The notes under the pieces were generated by a model, which did not search any database, was not told the DNA's origin, and was given only the letters and a program-made list of their open reading frames with translations. This document shows positions 2,914 through 10,172 of a stretch of DNA of 64,000 nt, piece after piece. Numbering within the stretch: position 1 is the first letter of the stretch; every line of letters begins with the position of its first letter. The DNA comes from Escherichia phage 348Ecol098PP. Both the position numbers and the translations under genes were made by a program. The DNA lies in sequence record OR062947.1; one strand, 5' to 3'.

Positions 2914-4731
2914 ATGATTAAAAATGAAATTAAGGTATTGTCAGATGTAGAACATATTAAGAAACGTAGTGGTATGTATATTGGTTCTTCTGCTAAAGAA
3001 GCACATGAGCGTTTTTTGTTTGGTAAATATCAACAAGTTGAATATGTTCCTGGTCTGGTTAAATTAATCGATGAGATTATTGACAACTCGGTTGATGAAG
3101 CTATTCGTACATCATTTAAGTTTGCAAATAAAATTGATGTGCAAATTAAAAATAATCAAGTTTCGGTGGAAGATAACGGACGTGGTATTCCTCAAGGTTT
3201 AGTTACCGACCAAACAGGTGAACAAATTCCTGGGCCTGTAGCAGCCTGGACTATTCCAAAGGCCGGTGGTAACTTTGGTGATGACTCTGAACGCAAGACT
3301 GGTGGTATGAACGGCGTCGGGAGTAGTTTAACTAATATCTTCTCTACGTTGTTTACAGGCATCACGTCAGATGGCGAAAATGAAATCACTGTTAACTGTT
3401 CAAACGGAATGGAAAACAAATCATGGTCTTCTAAGAAATCTAAAGGTAAAGGCACTAAAGTAATCTTCACTCCTGATTTCACTTCATTTGAAGAGCATAA
3501 TTTATCTCAAATTTATTTAGATATTACTTTAGACCGACTTCAAACATTGGCAGTCGTTTATCCTGATATCAAGTTCACATTTAATGGTAAAAAGGTTGAT
3601 GGTAATTTTAAACGATTTGCTAAACAATTTGGTGAAGATAACATCATTCAAGAAAATGATAAAGTCTCTATAGCATTCACAACATCACCAGATGGCTTCC
3701 GTCATTTAACTTATGTGAATAACATCCATACTAAAAATGGTGGCCATCATGTTGAATGTGTAATGGATGATATCTGCGAACATCTTTTGCCCGGTATTAA
3801 AAAGAAATATAAGGGTATTGAAGTCACTAAAGCTCGTGTTAAAGAATGCCTCACAATGTTGATGTTTATTAGAGACATGAGCAACATGCGTTTTGATTCT
3901 CAGACTAAAGAACGTTTAACGTCAACGTATGGTGATATTCGTAATCATATCCAATTAGATGCTAAGAAAATTGCTCAGGCACTTCTTAAAAACGAAGCCT
4001 TGATTATGCCTATTGTTGAAGCCGCATTAGCTCGTAAATTGGCGGCAGAAAAGGCTGCAGAAACTAAAGCAGCTAAAAAGGCAACTAAAGCTAAGGTTCA
4101 TAAACATATTAAAGCTAACCAATGTGGTAAAGATGCAGATACGACATTGTTCTTAACAGAAGGTGATTCTGCAATTGGTTATCTCATTGATGTTCGTGAC
4201 CGTGAACTACACGGCGGATTCCCATTACGTGGTAAGGTGATGAATAGCTGGGGTATGTCATATGCTGATATGATGAAGAACAAAGAGCTCTTTGATATCT
4301 GTGCTATCACGGGTCTTATTCTTGGTGAAAAGGCAGAGAATACGAACTATCGTAATATTGCAATTATGACCGATGCCGATCATGACGGTCTTGGAAGTAT
4401 CTATCCGGCTTTGCTTGCTTTCTTTAGTAATTGGCCTGAATTGTTTGAACAAGGACGTATTCGCTTTGTTAAAACACCTGTAATTATTGCACAAATTGGC
4501 AAAGCTCAAAAATGGTTTTATACTGTAGCTGAGTATGAAGAAGTTAAAGATACACTGCCTAAGCATAGTATTCGATACATCAAGGGATTAGGCTCCCTTG
4601 AAAAGTCAGAATATCGTGAAATGATTCAGAACCCTGTGTACGACGTAGTTAAACTTCCTGAAAATTGGAAAGAACTCTTTGAAATGTTGATGGGTGATGA
4701 TTCAGAACTTCGTAAAGAATGGATGTCCTAA
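2914..4731 (+). CDS. 39: DNA topoisomerase II large subunit, uninterrupted (T4 gp39 plus gp60 equivalent)
   Basis: 605-aa ORF with GHKL ATPase and Toprim motifs (NGRGIP, DADHDG); single ORF as recalled for T2-type phages, not split as in T4. Confidence 0.9.
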   Translation: MIKNEIKVLSDVEHIKKRSGMYIGSSAKEAHERFLFGKYQQVEYVPGLVKLIDEIIDNSVDEAIRTSFKFANKIDVQIKNNQVSVEDNGRGIPQGLVTDQTGEQIPGPVAAWTIPKAGGNFGDDSERKTGGMNGVGSSLTNIFSTLFTGITSDGENEITVNCSNGMENKSWSSKKSKGKGTKVIFTPDFTSFEEHNLSQIYLDITLDRLQTLAVVYPDIKFTFNGKKVDGNFKRFAKQFGEDNIIQENDKVSIAFTTSPDGFRHLTYVNNIHTKNGGHHVECVMDDICEHLLPGIKKKYKGIEVTKARVKECLTMLMFIRDMSNMRFDSQTKERLTSTYGDIRNHIQLDAKKIAQALLKNEALIMPIVEAALARKLAAEKAAETKAAKKATKAKVHKHIKANQCGKDADTTLFLTEGDSAIGYLIDVRDRELHGGFPLRGKVMNSWGMSYADMMKNKELFDICAITGLILGEKAENTNYRNIAIMTDADHDGLGSIYPALLAFFSNWPELFEQGRIRFVKTPVIIAQIGKAQKWFYTVAEYEEVKDTLPKHSIRYIKGLGSLEKSEYREMIQNPVYDVVKLPENWKELFEMLMGDDSELRKEWMS

Positions 4732-4756
4732 GCTCCTTCGGGAGCTTCATTTTAAT
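4731..4756 (+). terminator. rho-independent terminator
   Basis: agctccTTCGggagct followed by a T-rich tract. Confidence 0.55.
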
Positions 4757-4773
4757 TTTAATAAGGCTTAATT

Positions 4774-5874
4774 ATGAAAGTTATGTTTATCCCATCTCGT
4801 GCAGTCCCATTTAACCCAGAACGTGTACAAGGTGGTCTTGAAGCAGTACATTTAAATGTGTTGAAATATCTTGTGTCCATCGGTGCTGATATTGATTATA
4901 TCGGCTTTGATAATGACACATTTGGTGATTGGAAGGTTAATCATCATCCTGTTGGTCATCTGACTAAATTCAGTCTAGGTATGAGTTATACTATGGCTCG
5001 TAAGATTGTTGAACTGGCCGGCATCCATGAATACGATTTTGTTGTTACTATGGAACCGACTAAACTAACCGTTCAGGCAATTAAAGACGCAGGTCTCTCT
5101 AAAGTTCATAAGAATTTTATGGCAACACCATTTGAACCTGTATCTCGTGGCATTGTTCAAATTTGGGACCAGACTATTCAAATTCATAAGAATGGCGGTA
5201 AGAGTTATGCTCCTACTAAAGCCTTCCGTGAATTTGAACGCAAATATTGTTATATGACTTCAGGTCTGACTGACAAAATCGATTATGATTATTGGCGAGC
5301 AAATCCGTTGTTTGAAGCCGAAGATTATCCGGTTATTTGTTTGAATGAGAAACCTGAAGTTCTTCCGGCGACGGATCTGATTATTAGTGCACAACGTTAT
5401 GACACTAAAATGCGTCGTACTGATGTTGCTCTTGAAGCGATTAAAGCACTAGGCGAAAATGGTGCAGGATACTGTCCAAGCAAATGGGCGCCACCAGCTA
5501 AATATCCTGTTATTATCGATGCTCCACACAGTGAAATCATGGAACGTCTTAAAACAGCTAAAGCACTTATTAATACGTGTCCTGACACAGGTACGGTAGA
5601 GAATAGTTCTATTGAAGCCATCTCTAAAGGTGTCCCTGTAATCCAGTTAGTTTTTAAGGATTATCCTCATGCGACATTCGAATACGACCCAGATACTGTG
5701 CGTGTAGAAATTGATTCCTCTACTCCTAAGAAAGAAGTAGTTGCGCTTTACACAAAAGCTGTATTAGAATTCACTGACACATACGAAGCTCGAGTTAAAC
5801 GTGCTGAAGCAGTATGGAAGAAGTATAACCGAGATGCAGTTGTTGCGATGTGGGATAAAATCTTCACAGCGTAA
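4774..5874 (+). CDS. putative GT-B fold glycosyltransferase (family 1/4-like)
   Basis: 366-aa ORF; N-terminal MFIPSRAVPFNPERVQGGLEAVHLNVLKYL resembles the GT4 GG-x-E start, C-terminal TGTVENSSIEAISKGVPVI resembles the EA-x-G-PVI nucleotide-sugar motif; function inferred. Confidence 0.5.
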   Translation: MKVMFIPSRAVPFNPERVQGGLEAVHLNVLKYLVSIGADIDYIGFDNDTFGDWKVNHHPVGHLTKFSLGMSYTMARKIVELAGIHEYDFVVTMEPTKLTVQAIKDAGLSKVHKNFMATPFEPVSRGIVQIWDQTIQIHKNGGKSYAPTKAFREFERKYCYMTSGLTDKIDYDYWRANPLFEAEDYPVICLNEKPEVLPATDLIISAQRYDTKMRRTDVALEAIKALGENGAGYCPSKWAPPAKYPVIIDAPHSEIMERLKTAKALINTCPDTGTVENSSIEAISKGVPVIQLVFKDYPHATFEYDPDTVRVEIDSSTPKKEVVALYTKAVLEFTDTYEARVKRAEAVWKKYNRDAVVAMWDKIFTA

Positions 5875-5966
5875 ATCCTGAATAGCCTGAGGCACTATTA
5901 CACATAAGATGATAGATTATATGGTCTTTAGTAATAGTGCCCTAGGAATCTACTGAAGAGAATATT

Positions 5967-6167
5967 ATGAGAACATATAACGTGGACTTGGAACTTTTTG
6001 ATAAAGCGGTGCTCCGGGAATTCCGGCTTATCCAAAGATTTTTTGATATCGAATCAGCAGAGTCCTTTAAAGAACGCTTTAAAGAAATTCGATATAAAAT
6101 ACAAACCGATACAGCTACTAAAGAAGAACTTCTCGAAGTAGCAGAAATTTTTAAACGTAACTTGTGA
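5967..6167 (+). CDS. small protein upstream of rIIA (rIIA.1-like by position)
   Basis: 66-aa ORF with gaagag RBS, immediately upstream of rIIA. Confidence 0.5.
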   Translation: MRTYNVDLELFDKAVLREFRLIQRFFDIESAESFKERFKEIRYKIQTDTATKEELLEVAEIFKRNL

Positions 6168-6179
6168 TGAGAGAAAAAT

Positions 6180-8393
6180 ATGATTATTGAAACGGCTAAA
6201 GAAACGATTATTGGTTCAGGCGGTAAGAGCACAGCATTCACTATTCAAGGCAATAGCAAAGTTTATAAGATTTTGTCTAATGACCTTTATACAAACAAAG
6301 AATTGGCTTGTGTACGTGAATTAATCACAAACTGTATCGATGGACAAATTCTTAACGGTTGCACTGATAAGTTTATTGTTCAGGCTCCAGGTCGTTTAGA
6401 CCCACGTTTTGTAGTTCGAGACTTTGGTCCTGGTATGAGTGATTTCACCATTCGAGGTAATGACGAAGAGCCAGGAATCTATAACTCATATTTTGCTTCA
6501 ACTAAAACATCGAGTAATGATTTCATTGGTGGATTCGGACTCGGCTCTAAAGCTCCACTAGCATATACCGATACGTTTAACCTTACGTCTTATCACAACG
6601 GTGAAGTTCGTGGTTACGTAATCTACCAAGATGACACAGGTCCACAAATTAAGCCAACCTTTGTAGATAAGATGGGTCCTGATGACCGTACGGGTGTAGA
6701 AGTAGTTGTACCGGTTAACCCAGAAGATTTTGAAAAGTTCGCATCTGAAATTGCATATGTTATGCGTCCTCTAGGTGATATTGCAGAAGTTCGCGGTGTT
6801 AAAGATATTAAATACTTTCCTGAATTTGACGATGTATATTTGGCCAAGGAAGCTCCATGGGGTGAACGTGGTAATATCATGGCCGTTTATGGTGGTATTG
6901 TATATCCAATCGGAAGTGTTATTAAAGAACAAACATGGATGATGACACGATGCACTACAGCTTATATTAAATTCCCAATGGGTGAACTAGATGTTGCTCC
7001 GTCTCGCGAAGCATTGTCATTTGATAAACGTACAGTAGCAAATATCCATAAACGCGTTGCAGAAATCGATGCTAAATTGTTCGCTGAAGATTCTAAGAAA
7101 TGGATTGATTGTAAATACCCACGACATGTGTTCCGCGAAATTGATTCTCTTGGCTATACCGCTCGTAAATACATGGAAAAGGCCGGGTCTAATATTGAAT
7201 CACTGAAATACTCTAAAGAACAACTAACTTATTCTGAGTTGTACAAACGTTTTAAAATGGGACCTGAGTGGTGTAATCTTGGTGTCGTATACGATATCGT
7301 TGAATCCCCTCGTCTTCGTCGTATTCGTGAAAGTGGTAGCTCATCATCAACCATTTCAATTAACAGCCTGATTGGCATTAACATTAAAAACGTTGAAATT
7401 GTTATTGACGATGTTAAGGGACGCGTTCCATTAATGCGAGCTCTTAATTCAATTGAAATGTCTAAAGACGAGGTTAAATTATCCGGTAAAGTTCCACGCG
7501 GTTTTGGTAAAAGCGTACTATTCGTTGACCCTACAGACGAAGATGCAATGAAACTTCTGGAACGCCTTAAAGTTATCTTTGATGGCGACAACATTAACAT
7601 ATACAAGACTTCAGAGCTTTTACAAATCGTTAAGCCATGGATTGAAGTCAGGAAACGGACTAATGAGCCTCGTCCTAAATCCCCGAGTGCTCATCGATTC
7701 TTTAAGAATGAAAACGATGTTTGGGTATCAGAAGACCTCTTTATTCCGGCAAGTGAAGCAGATGAAATCCAAGGTTATGCTATAGTTCGTAATCGTTCTA
7801 ATGCTGAATGTCTTGACGCAGATAAAGGTTGGTTGAACTATGACTCCAATTTCTTGACCCGTATTGCTGATTTGTCAGGTATTAAAGAGTTCACTGTAGT
7901 TCGTCCACAGATTGCTAAGAAAGTTCGTAAACTTGGTGAAGTAGAATGCTTGTTCGAAAAATCAATTAATGACTATATTACGCTAATTGATAAAGTGGAT
8001 TATGATGAGTATGTATCACCAAGTCGTAGAGCACAGCCTTATTTGAATCATATTACTCGTAACGAAGAGCTTAACTTCCTTAGTAAGTATTTTAGCTCTA
8101 AGAACAAAGAAATCAGTAAAGACTTTGCAAAACTCTCAACAGTAAATAATCGTTGGGGATGGAATCGATTCGCAGGTGCTACTAATACAGACCTGAATAA
8201 GAAGTTAGAATTGTGTGCTAAAATTTTCGATAAGCTTAAAGATAATGCTTACGATAATGATGATAAAATGGTTATTGAATTCGAAACCAATTATCATATT
8301 GTGTCAGAATACATGGGACGACGTGGTACTCTTTCCAAAGAACAGGTCGCTCAAATCGTTAAATTCGTGAAGGCCGTGGAAGCGGCCAAATAA
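6180..8393 (+). CDS. rIIA: rIIA membrane-associated protector protein
   Basis: 737-aa ORF; N-terminus MIIETAKETIIGSGGKS...LYTNK...RELITNCIDG matches the recalled T4 rIIA start with its GHKL-like ATPase motif. Confidence 0.85.
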   Translation: MIIETAKETIIGSGGKSTAFTIQGNSKVYKILSNDLYTNKELACVRELITNCIDGQILNGCTDKFIVQAPGRLDPRFVVRDFGPGMSDFTIRGNDEEPGIYNSYFASTKTSSNDFIGGFGLGSKAPLAYTDTFNLTSYHNGEVRGYVIYQDDTGPQIKPTFVDKMGPDDRTGVEVVVPVNPEDFEKFASEIAYVMRPLGDIAEVRGVKDIKYFPEFDDVYLAKEAPWGERGNIMAVYGGIVYPIGSVIKEQTWMMTRCTTAYIKFPMGELDVAPSREALSFDKRTVANIHKRVAEIDAKLFAEDSKKWIDCKYPRHVFREIDSLGYTARKYMEKAGSNIESLKYSKEQLTYSELYKRFKMGPEWCNLGVVYDIVESPRLRRIRESGSSSSTISINSLIGINIKNVEIVIDDVKGRVPLMRALNSIEMSKDEVKLSGKVPRGFGKSVLFVDPTDEDAMKLLERLKVIFDGDNINIYKTSELLQIVKPWIEVRKRTNEPRPKSPSAHRFFKNENDVWVSEDLFIPASEADEIQGYAIVRNRSNAECLDADKGWLNYDSNFLTRIADLSGIKEFTVVRPQIAKKVRKLGEVECLFEKSINDYITLIDKVDYDEYVSPSRRAQPYLNHITRNEELNFLSKYFSSKNKEISKDFAKLSTVNNRWGWNRFAGATNTDLNKKLELCAKIFDKLKDNAYDNDDKMVIEFETNYHIVSEYMGRRGTLSKEQVAQIVKFVKAVEAAK

Positions 8394-9391: not shown

Positions 9392-9679
9392 ATGATTCAT
9401 CCATTTGACGTATCAGAATCCAAAATTGCTAATCTTCGTGGTCATCATAAGTGTAAATCAGTTTATTGTGCTAAATTGGTAAAACATCCTGGCGATGCAC
9501 ACTACGGCTGGTTAGAATGCGACGAAGTTGTTATTGAAATTCCGCCTGTAGATGCAGAATATCTTGAAGAAGGTGACCGCATTTATTTTGGCGAACTACA
9601 CATCAGAGGTATCTATGGTAAAGACGAACTTGGGGCTGTTGAGGCTGAAGAATCTTCCGACATTTATCCTGTCGAATGA
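9392..9679 (+). CDS. hypothetical early protein
   Basis: 95-aa ORF with ggggtaatt RBS-like sequence; lies in the denB/ndd region. Confidence 0.45.
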   Translation: MIHPFDVSESKIANLRGHHKCKSVYCAKLVKHPGDAHYGWLECDEVVIEIPPVDAEYLEEGDRIYFGELHIRGIYGKDELGAVEAEESSDIYPVE

Positions 9680-9695
9680 GTTTTTGACTAGTGAA

Positions 9696-10172
9696 ATGAA
9701 GGTGAAGATTGCTGACACTGCTCGGTATTCCCTGAGCCAAAATCCTGGCCAAAACAAAGAAGATGTAGTTCGACGTTGTAAGGTTGCGGTCTTTGCAGAG
9801 TATGTAGTAGCAAATTGGCTAGACGGATATGTTAATAAAGGTATTGAAGATGTAGAAGACCCGTACACGTATGCATGGGACGTGTTAGCTCATCCTAAAT
9901 ACTGCGGGTTGCGTGTAGAAGTCAAGACACACCAGATAGATTCTAAATGGATTTCGGTTACCACAGGATACAGCGGTGATTATCCAGGTGGTAATGGAAT
10001 CAATATAGGGCCCTTCTTGAACCATCGAGTCGCAGATTGCATTATTATATTAGATGTCAAAGAAACCTCACCTGACGTCTTCTCTTATTCTATAAAGTTC
10101 GTGGGAGACCATGAAGACCTAAAGAAAATCGTCCGCAAGAGCAACTACAACGGGTGGTATCTTCAACTTTAA
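9696..10172 (+). CDS. hypothetical early protein (positional denB candidate, unverified)
   Basis: ATG at 9696 right after the upstream stop; track ORF 9552-10172 would overlap the upstream ORF by 128 nt, so the shorter start is preferred. Confidence 0.4.
   Translation: MKVKIADTARYSLSQNPGQNKEDVVRRCKVAVFAEYVVANWLDGYVNKGIEDVEDPYTYAWDVLAHPKYCGLRVEVKTHQIDSKWISVTTGYSGDYPGGNGINIGPFLNHRVADCIIILDVKETSPDVFSYSIKFVGDHEDLKKIVRKSNYNGWYLQL

Follow-up and report, generated by a model that had tools for sequence, protein, structure and literature searches.

The window analysed here, 64,000 nt of Escherichia phage 348Ecol098PP (OR062947.1), contains an open reading frame on its + strand at 4774-5874 (ATG start; the end coordinate includes the stop codon) which encodes a protein of 366 aa, annotated below as a glycosyltransferase. 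A Shine-Dalgarno-like AAGG (4764-4767, + strand) can be read directly from the sequence 6 nt 5′ of the ATG. The 5′ neighbour is an uninterrupted gene for the large subunit of topoisomerase II (gene 39; 605 aa, 2914-4731); the 3′ neighbours are a 66-aa rIIA.1-like ORF (5967-6167), rIIA (6180-8393) and rIIB-like genes. The order gene 39, transferase, rIIA.1, rIIA matches that of RB69 and HY126 and is the conserved Mosigvirus arrangement; an AEM 2026 paper gives the identical location for the Mosigvirus transferase gene. In T4, the gap between gene 39 and rIIA is occupied by genes 60, 60.1 and mobA. A preliminary description of this DNA had reported a 366-aa ORF between an uninterrupted topoisomerase gene and a rIIA.1-like ORF, and had placed T4 gene 60 and mobA in the corresponding gap; its coordinates, strand and gene order, as well as the T4 comparison, all proved correct. 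In its first 20 kb, the window is closest at the DNA level to HY126 (96.3%), with no identical phage record in the collection; on sequence similarity it is assigned to the RB69-like Mosigvirus lineage, apparently as a separate isolate or a mosaic. Neither tRNA genes nor Rfam families at the gathering threshold were found across the whole window (1-64000).

Mobile endonucleases appear to have landed repeatedly at the junction of gene 39 and the transferase gene. In the close relative NRG-P0074, a homing endonuclease gene is inserted between the two genes (L001 5161-5958); in the window, the gap at this insertion point is only 42 nt (4732-4773), and T4 carries mobA and a split gene 60 at the same junction. 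Further along, downstream of rIIB, two overlapping + strand ORFs are present (9392-9679, 95 aa; 9552-10172, 206 aa), and HY126 carries an annotated ‘endonuclease’ at the place corresponding to window 9392-10172.

Two hairpins flank the transferase gene. The upstream element (4730-4747, + strand), recognised by a scan for terminator-like structures and by sequence reading, is a UUCG-tetraloop hairpin, AAGCUCC-UUCG-GGAGCUU, followed by CAUUUUAAUUUU; it lies immediately 3′ of the gene 39 stop codon and 26 nt 5′ of the transferase ATG. This element looks like a terminator, an attenuator or an mRNA-stabilising hairpin, and its terminator- or attenuator-like appearance suggests that the transferase may be expressed at a level unlike that of gene 39. 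The downstream element (5889-5942, + strand) is a strong hairpin in the 92-nt spacer (5875-5966) between the transferase gene and rIIA.1, with an 11-bp perfect stem, a loop of approximately 28 nt and no U-tract. Its RNA minimum free energy is −28.6 kcal/mol (z = −4.76), with equally good folds in 0 of 200 shuffled sequences. Its conservation in RB69, HY126 and NRG-P0074 is 99%, and the stem contains only two differences, both in one base pair, which is A-U in the window, A·C in RB69 and G·U in HY126. This hairpin may not be part of the transferase gene. Rfam searches of both flanking hairpins gave no match. A sigma-70 promoter scan around the transferase gene returned 10 sites against a shuffled mean of 13.4; as the sites are not in excess of those in shuffled sequence, we make no claim for a promoter of this gene.

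The transferase ORF is a real gene and not a chance reading frame, since full-length homologues are present in 211 phage records, PHROG 8302 matches it end to end and a crystal structure is available for a protein that is 98% identical. The encoded protein is equal in length to RB69p003 (ORF003c/gp3, NP_861693.1), which also lies between gene 39 and rIIA.1, and is identical to it at 364 of 366 positions (99%); the only two substitutions are conservative (E16D, T327I) and neither is in an invariant column of the family. The match to PHROG 8302 (‘unknown function’) covers residues 1-366 of 366 (E = 9e-223). A PDB sequence search identified 9iqz and 9ir0, each 98% identical to the window protein, which a fold search names as ‘phage HY126 glycosyltransferase’ (apo) and the same protein ‘with UDP’, respectively (release 2025-07-16). 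The six substitutions relative to the HY126 protein (positions 16, 56, 160, 163, 230 and 315) are all outside invariant columns, and UDP binding by the window protein is, by virtue of this sequence identity, indirectly supported by the 9ir0 complex. The HY126 Afh genes are reportedly the subject of work by He et al. in Nat Chem Biol (2026), which is probably the source of 9iqz and 9ir0, and a deletion of Aat in phage Bas46 is said to have been described by Mahler et al. in Cell Host Microbe (2025).

The 211 records noted above came out of a tblastn comparison of the window protein with 50,697 phage records. Of these 211, 155 are Escherichia or Shigella Mosigvirus phages with identities of at least 95%; the other 56 are mostly Acinetobacter T4-like phages, with approximately 43% identity and two copies each. 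The exact protein sequence can already be found in the public records of vB_Eco_mar005P1, FP43 and G53, labelled ‘hypothetical protein’, and the protein of Mosigvirus NP is in the same 90% cluster. An exhaustive HMM search of 1.84 billion proteins yielded 12 representatives at 50% identity, and a word search of a 5.8-billion-protein set yielded 5 clusters only; the family is genuinely small. The Pfam and NCBIfam libraries miss it, the window protein matching no Pfam family at E ≤ 10 and no NCBIfam model. The gene is already known rather than novel, near-identical proteins being covered by the literature of 2018-2026 and by the HY126 structure.

The first AF2 model, made with only 6 close sequences, was poor (pLDDT 61). 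With a 12-sequence alignment, to which distant members from the exhaustive HMM search had been added, AF2 gave a model with a pLDDT of 91.7 and a pTM of 0.88 which superposes on the HY126 glycosyltransferase structure at TM 0.97. The next structural neighbours are GT4 enzymes, those closest outside phages being LPS, glycolipid and small-molecule enzymes (WaaG, WaaB, PimA and BshA). The GT-B arrangement of two Rossmann-like domains with C-terminal helices returning to the N-terminal domain is recognisable in the model. The N-terminal Rossmann-like domain (approximately residues 1-190; 4774-5343, + strand), delimited from AF2 secondary structure and family invariants, contains the invariant G20-G21-L22 loop (nt 4831-4839), E94, T118-P119 and R125; from general knowledge of GT-B enzymes, it is presumed to form the acceptor (DNA-sugar) side. 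The C-terminal Rossmann-like domain (approximately residues 196-335; 5359-5778, + strand), delimited in the same way, is the putative nucleotide-sugar binding side; Q207-R208-x-D210...R214 (nt 5392-5415) is invariant here, and the TGTVENSSIEAISKGVPVIQL motif is located at nt 5587-5649. This domain is followed by the C-terminal helices (residues 337-365; 5779-5871, + strand), which AF2 places at 337-351 and 353-365. In GT-B enzymes such helices cross back to the N-terminal domain, and by analogy those of the window protein likely do the same.

In 11 members of the family, with identities down to 35%, the residues G20, G21, L22, G273, T274, E276, S279, E281, A282, I283, G286, P288 and V289 are invariant. 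The two motif-like peptide segments on which the preliminary description relied are present at residues 12-33 and 272-292, and no other part of the family is as well conserved. G20, R208, R214, E281, A282, G286 and P288 remain invariant after the addition of two distant proteins to the alignment, one of which (P0015) scores above the Pfam Glyco_transf_4 cut-off (31.9 bits), and the other of which has sub-threshold Glycos_transf_1 matches. An hhalign comparison of the family profile with P0015 gave a probability of 98.3% (E = 2.5e-14) over 341 columns. The window protein itself has no significant match to a Pfam GT4 model, and other family members reach GT4-conflict only below threshold. The GT4 C-terminal domain is defined by an EX7E motif; this canonical motif is not present in the window protein, where E276-N-S-S-I-E281-A has EX4E spacing, with the first Glu displaced, and the second (E281) and the following A-x-x-x-G-x-P-V are invariant. 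Given the model, the HY126 structure, the profile match and the invariant residues, the window protein is a GT-B enzyme distantly related to GT4, with an atypical EX4E spacing, and both profile and structure comparison indicate remote homology to GT4. The earlier assignment to a GT-B, GT4-type glycosyltransferase, made from short motifs, thus agrees with the fold search on the predicted structure, which returned a GT fold, with the HY126 enzyme ahead of the GT4 enzymes. Identity to bacterial GT4 enzymes (sucrose-phosphate synthase 6kih, BshA, tll1591, PimA, MshA, WaaG) is only 10-14%; they have EX7E in place of EX4E, the window protein being without a Pfam match, and GT4 is known as a retaining family, whereas the proposed acceptor of the window enzyme is a sugar on DNA and its proposed product linkage is β.

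Comparisons with the T-even glucosyltransferases revealed no detectable homology, in line with what the preliminary description had said of the known T-even enzymes. T4 a-gt (GT72; PDB 1y6f) gave a BLASTP E > 7 and an hhalign probability of 0.3%, and ranks 35th among the structural neighbours of the window protein; it is also encoded at another genome position and transfers glucose to hmC, as the first sugar. T4 b-gt (GT63) has neither sequence nor close structural homology to the window protein, and the T2/T6 β-glucosyl-HMC-α-glucosyltransferase gave an hhalign probability of 1.8% over 17 columns. The T6 second-glucose transferase is a functional analogue of the role proposed below, since its substrate is likewise a base that already bears one sugar, to which it adds a second. 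Direct comparison with the Mosigvirus first transferase also gave no sequence homology. The preliminary description assumed that the known α- and β-glucosyltransferases map elsewhere; according to the accessible part of the published record, RB69-type phages lack the T4 glucosyltransferases, and inspection of the pol-uvsX region showed no b-gt there.

The modification of RB69-type DNA is of a different kind. Thomas et al. 2018 (PMC6024577) detected arabinose in the DNA of RB69 and, using HMM and HHpred, proposed that ORF003c, the only glycosyltransferase candidate of this phage, is its arabinosyltransferase. Lee et al. 2026 (NAR, PMC13326640) corrected the base to 5-hydroxycytosine, not hmC, with 5-hydroxy-dCMP made by a flavin-dependent thymidylate-synthase homologue, and reported that RB69 DNA is mono- and di-arabinosylated, the disaccharide β-D-Araf-(1-3)-α-D-Araf being carried on O5. 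The hydroxymethylcytosine and the T-even glucose invoked as context in the preliminary description are accordingly to be replaced by 5-hydroxycytosine and D-arabinofuranose in this lineage (PMC13326640). In the same work, RB69 gp46:47 is the first transferase and gp3 is listed as ‘β-arabinosyltransferase 2’ (putative), which a footnote to Table 1 places outside the experimentally confirmed proteins; the accessible literature contains no assay of a gp3-type enzyme itself. The earlier suggestion of a second-sugar or alternative-sugar step on DNA fits this literature well, the 99%-identical RB69 orthologue being the putative second arabinosyltransferase. Mono- and di-arabinosyl-dC have also been measured in Mosigvirus NP (PMC13390438, 2026), and no sugars other than arabinofuranoses have been found in RB69 or NP DNA.

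In Acinetobacter phages, the homologues are flanked on one side by the nucleotide kinase belonging to the arabinosylation cluster and on the other by gene 40/41. In Lazarus (L003 9001-11296), two tandem transferase paralogues are located inside this cluster, in the order arabinose-5-phosphate isomerase, bifunctional pyrophosphorylase, phosphatase, synthase, first transferase, kinase and two transferases. DLP3 gp76 and gp77 (Lazarus_072/073-type), which belong to the same family, are DNA-directed UDP-Araf transferases that extend existing arabinose; jointly they use UDP-Araf to extend the modification of RB69 DNA by a third Araf, the single transferases being inactive alone (PMC13326640). The tandem copies are thus both needed for the third, β-1,5 sugar, and both extension sugars of DLP3 DNA are β-linked (PMC13326640). 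The Mosigvirus gene, by comparison, is single-copy and has moved to the gap between gene 39 and rIIA. Between the two Acinetobacter paralogue types identity is 54-57%; with the window protein it is 41-43%, over the full length. Because of these identities and the tree, the gp76/gp77 duplication is placed within the Acinetobacter-phage lineage, later than the split from the Mosigvirus gene, and the window protein is co-orthologous to both. The specific orthology to DLP3 gp77 implied by the NAR paper was rejected on the same grounds. The Acinetobacter paralogues are annotated as ‘putative DNA alpha-glucosyltransferase’, which probably names the wrong sugar.

We consider it likely that the window enzyme is a second DNA arabinofuranosyltransferase, which uses UDP-D-Araf to place a β-1,3-linked Araf on α-Araf-5-hydroxycytosine. 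Cytosine in RB69-type (Mosigvirus) phages is replaced by 5-hydroxycytosine, made as 5-hydroxy-dCMP by the thymidylate-synthase homologue, and in the proposed mechanism the first transferase (RB69 gp46:47 family) would put α-D-arabinofuranose on the 5-oxygen. The window enzyme, presumably a soluble GT-B (GT4-like) protein acting on phage DNA after replication, would bind UDP-D-arabinofuranose in its C-terminal domain and add a second, β-D-arabinofuranose at O3 of the first sugar. The product would be β-D-Araf-(1-3)-α-D-Araf-5-hydroxy-dC, and this larger modification is predicted to protect the DNA against more restriction and CRISPR-type defences. We infer both that the (1-3) step is carried out by this enzyme and that it acts alone; by analogy, since only DLP3 gp76 and gp77 together were active, the lone enzyme may need a partner.

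A base-proximal role, in which the enzyme would be the first transferase and attach arabinose directly to the modified cytosine, corresponds to the 2018 proposal of ORF003c as sole arabinosyltransferase. It follows from ORF003c being the only RB69 candidate in the accessible part of Thomas et al. 2018, and the accessible literature holds no direct assay excluding it, but we regard it as quite unlikely. A distinct 299-aa family (RB69 gp46:47; HY126 XAN60474) adjoins the 5-hydroxy-dCMP synthase, the two genes being directly adjacent in HY126 and Lazarus, and among the matches listed the first-transferase match often overlaps or abuts an annotated thymidylate-synthase gene. In genus-level counts of records per gene family, this first transferase, searched for with its 299-aa HY126 version, accompanies the synthase in every genus (342 against 345 phage records) with the same spread (Escherichia 176, Acinetobacter 57, Klebsiella 26, Shigella 15, Enterobacter 9, Serratia 9, Proteus 7 and Yersinia 6), its set additionally containing the mono-arabinosylated Shewanella phage Thanatos. 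The family of the window protein (211 records) occurs only in Mosigvirus phages of Escherichia/Shigella and in Acinetobacter phages and is missing from synthase-bearing Shewanella, Serratia, Klebsiella, Yersinia and Proteus phages. Among phages with measured DNA, its copy number tracks the count of extra sugars: Thanatos has no copy and one arabinose on the base, RB69 and NP have one copy and up to two arabinoses, and DLP3/Maestro-type phages have two copies and three arabinoses. This pattern agrees with the role of a second arabinosyltransferase and argues against the base-proximal role, as does the finding that the Acinetobacter paralogues extend arabinosylated DNA but are inactive on bare 5hoC DNA.

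The same paralogues bear on an alternative in which the substrate would be LPS or glycolipid of the host envelope, or else a protein, for example in superinfection exclusion; a host-envelope modifier had also been named as a possibility in the preliminary description. WaaG, WaaB, PimA and BshA, as the nearest non-phage structures, would be in keeping with such an activity, which nevertheless seems very improbable, because the Acinetobacter paralogues are situated within the DNA-arabinosylation cluster, between its kinase and gene 40/41, and act on DNA in vitro. The family is moreover confined to phages with the 5hoC-arabinose pathway, and its very small size, 12 representatives in 1.84 billion proteins, also speaks against an envelope function. 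It is unlikely, too, that the enzyme is a DNA sugar transferase with another donor or linkage, or one active only in complex with the first transferase. The joint requirement for gp76 and gp77, the replacement of EX7E by E276-x4-E281, and a donor whose anomeric configuration is unstated in the accessible literature could each be accommodated by such a scheme; set against these are the exclusive presence of arabinofuranoses in RB69 and NP DNA, the crystallisation of the near-identical HY126 protein with UDP, and the UDP-D-arabinose pathway encoded by the phage relatives (HY126). A search of the 64-kb window for the rest of the arabinosylation pathway found none, the transferase being its sole pathway gene; the pathway context is therefore taken from the 96%-identical relatives, and the main cluster in RB69 and HY126 lies between DNA polymerase and uvsX, approximately 20 kb past the left edge of the window.

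The proposed second-arabinosyltransferase role has a stereochemical consequence. The sugars of RB69-type DNA are of opposite anomeric configuration, α for the first and β for the second (PMC13326640), and both presumably derive from a single UDP-D-Araf donor; if so, the α and β linkages require one inverting and one retaining transferase. Should the donor be a conventional α-D nucleotide sugar, the window enzyme would be inverting on a GT4-like scaffold whose structural neighbours are all retaining, a possibility that we put forward tentatively and consider somewhat doubtful. Such an inverting course could be tied to the atypical EX4E motif and to the invariant Glu94 of the N-terminal domain; an inverting GT4-like enzyme would, if confirmed, be unusual for the clan.

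The transferase belongs to a recently worked-out disguise of T4-like phage DNA, in which 5-hydroxycytosine carries one to three arabinofuranose units and, once arabinosylated, blocks many restriction and CRISPR defences. How many sugars are attached is presumed to depend on the copies of this transferase family in each phage, and the gene is for that reason a practical marker from which the DNA chemistry of therapeutic Mosigvirus phages can be predicted, along with their restriction resistance and their behaviour in sequencing. Its value is as a correction to annotation and as a marker of di-arabinosylated DNA, rather than as anything scientifically new, almost all public records, including those with the exact protein sequence, still reading ‘hypothetical protein’.

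Annotation of the remaining pathway genes is also uneven. In the RB69 reference (NC_004928; L004 4598-5498 and 8095-9781), the first transferase (p046/p047) and the bifunctional kinase/pyrophosphorylase (p052/p053) are each represented by two ORFs, splits that have been ascribed to sequencing errors (PMC13326640); their HY126 counterparts are single intact ORFs of 299 and 562 aa, respectively.
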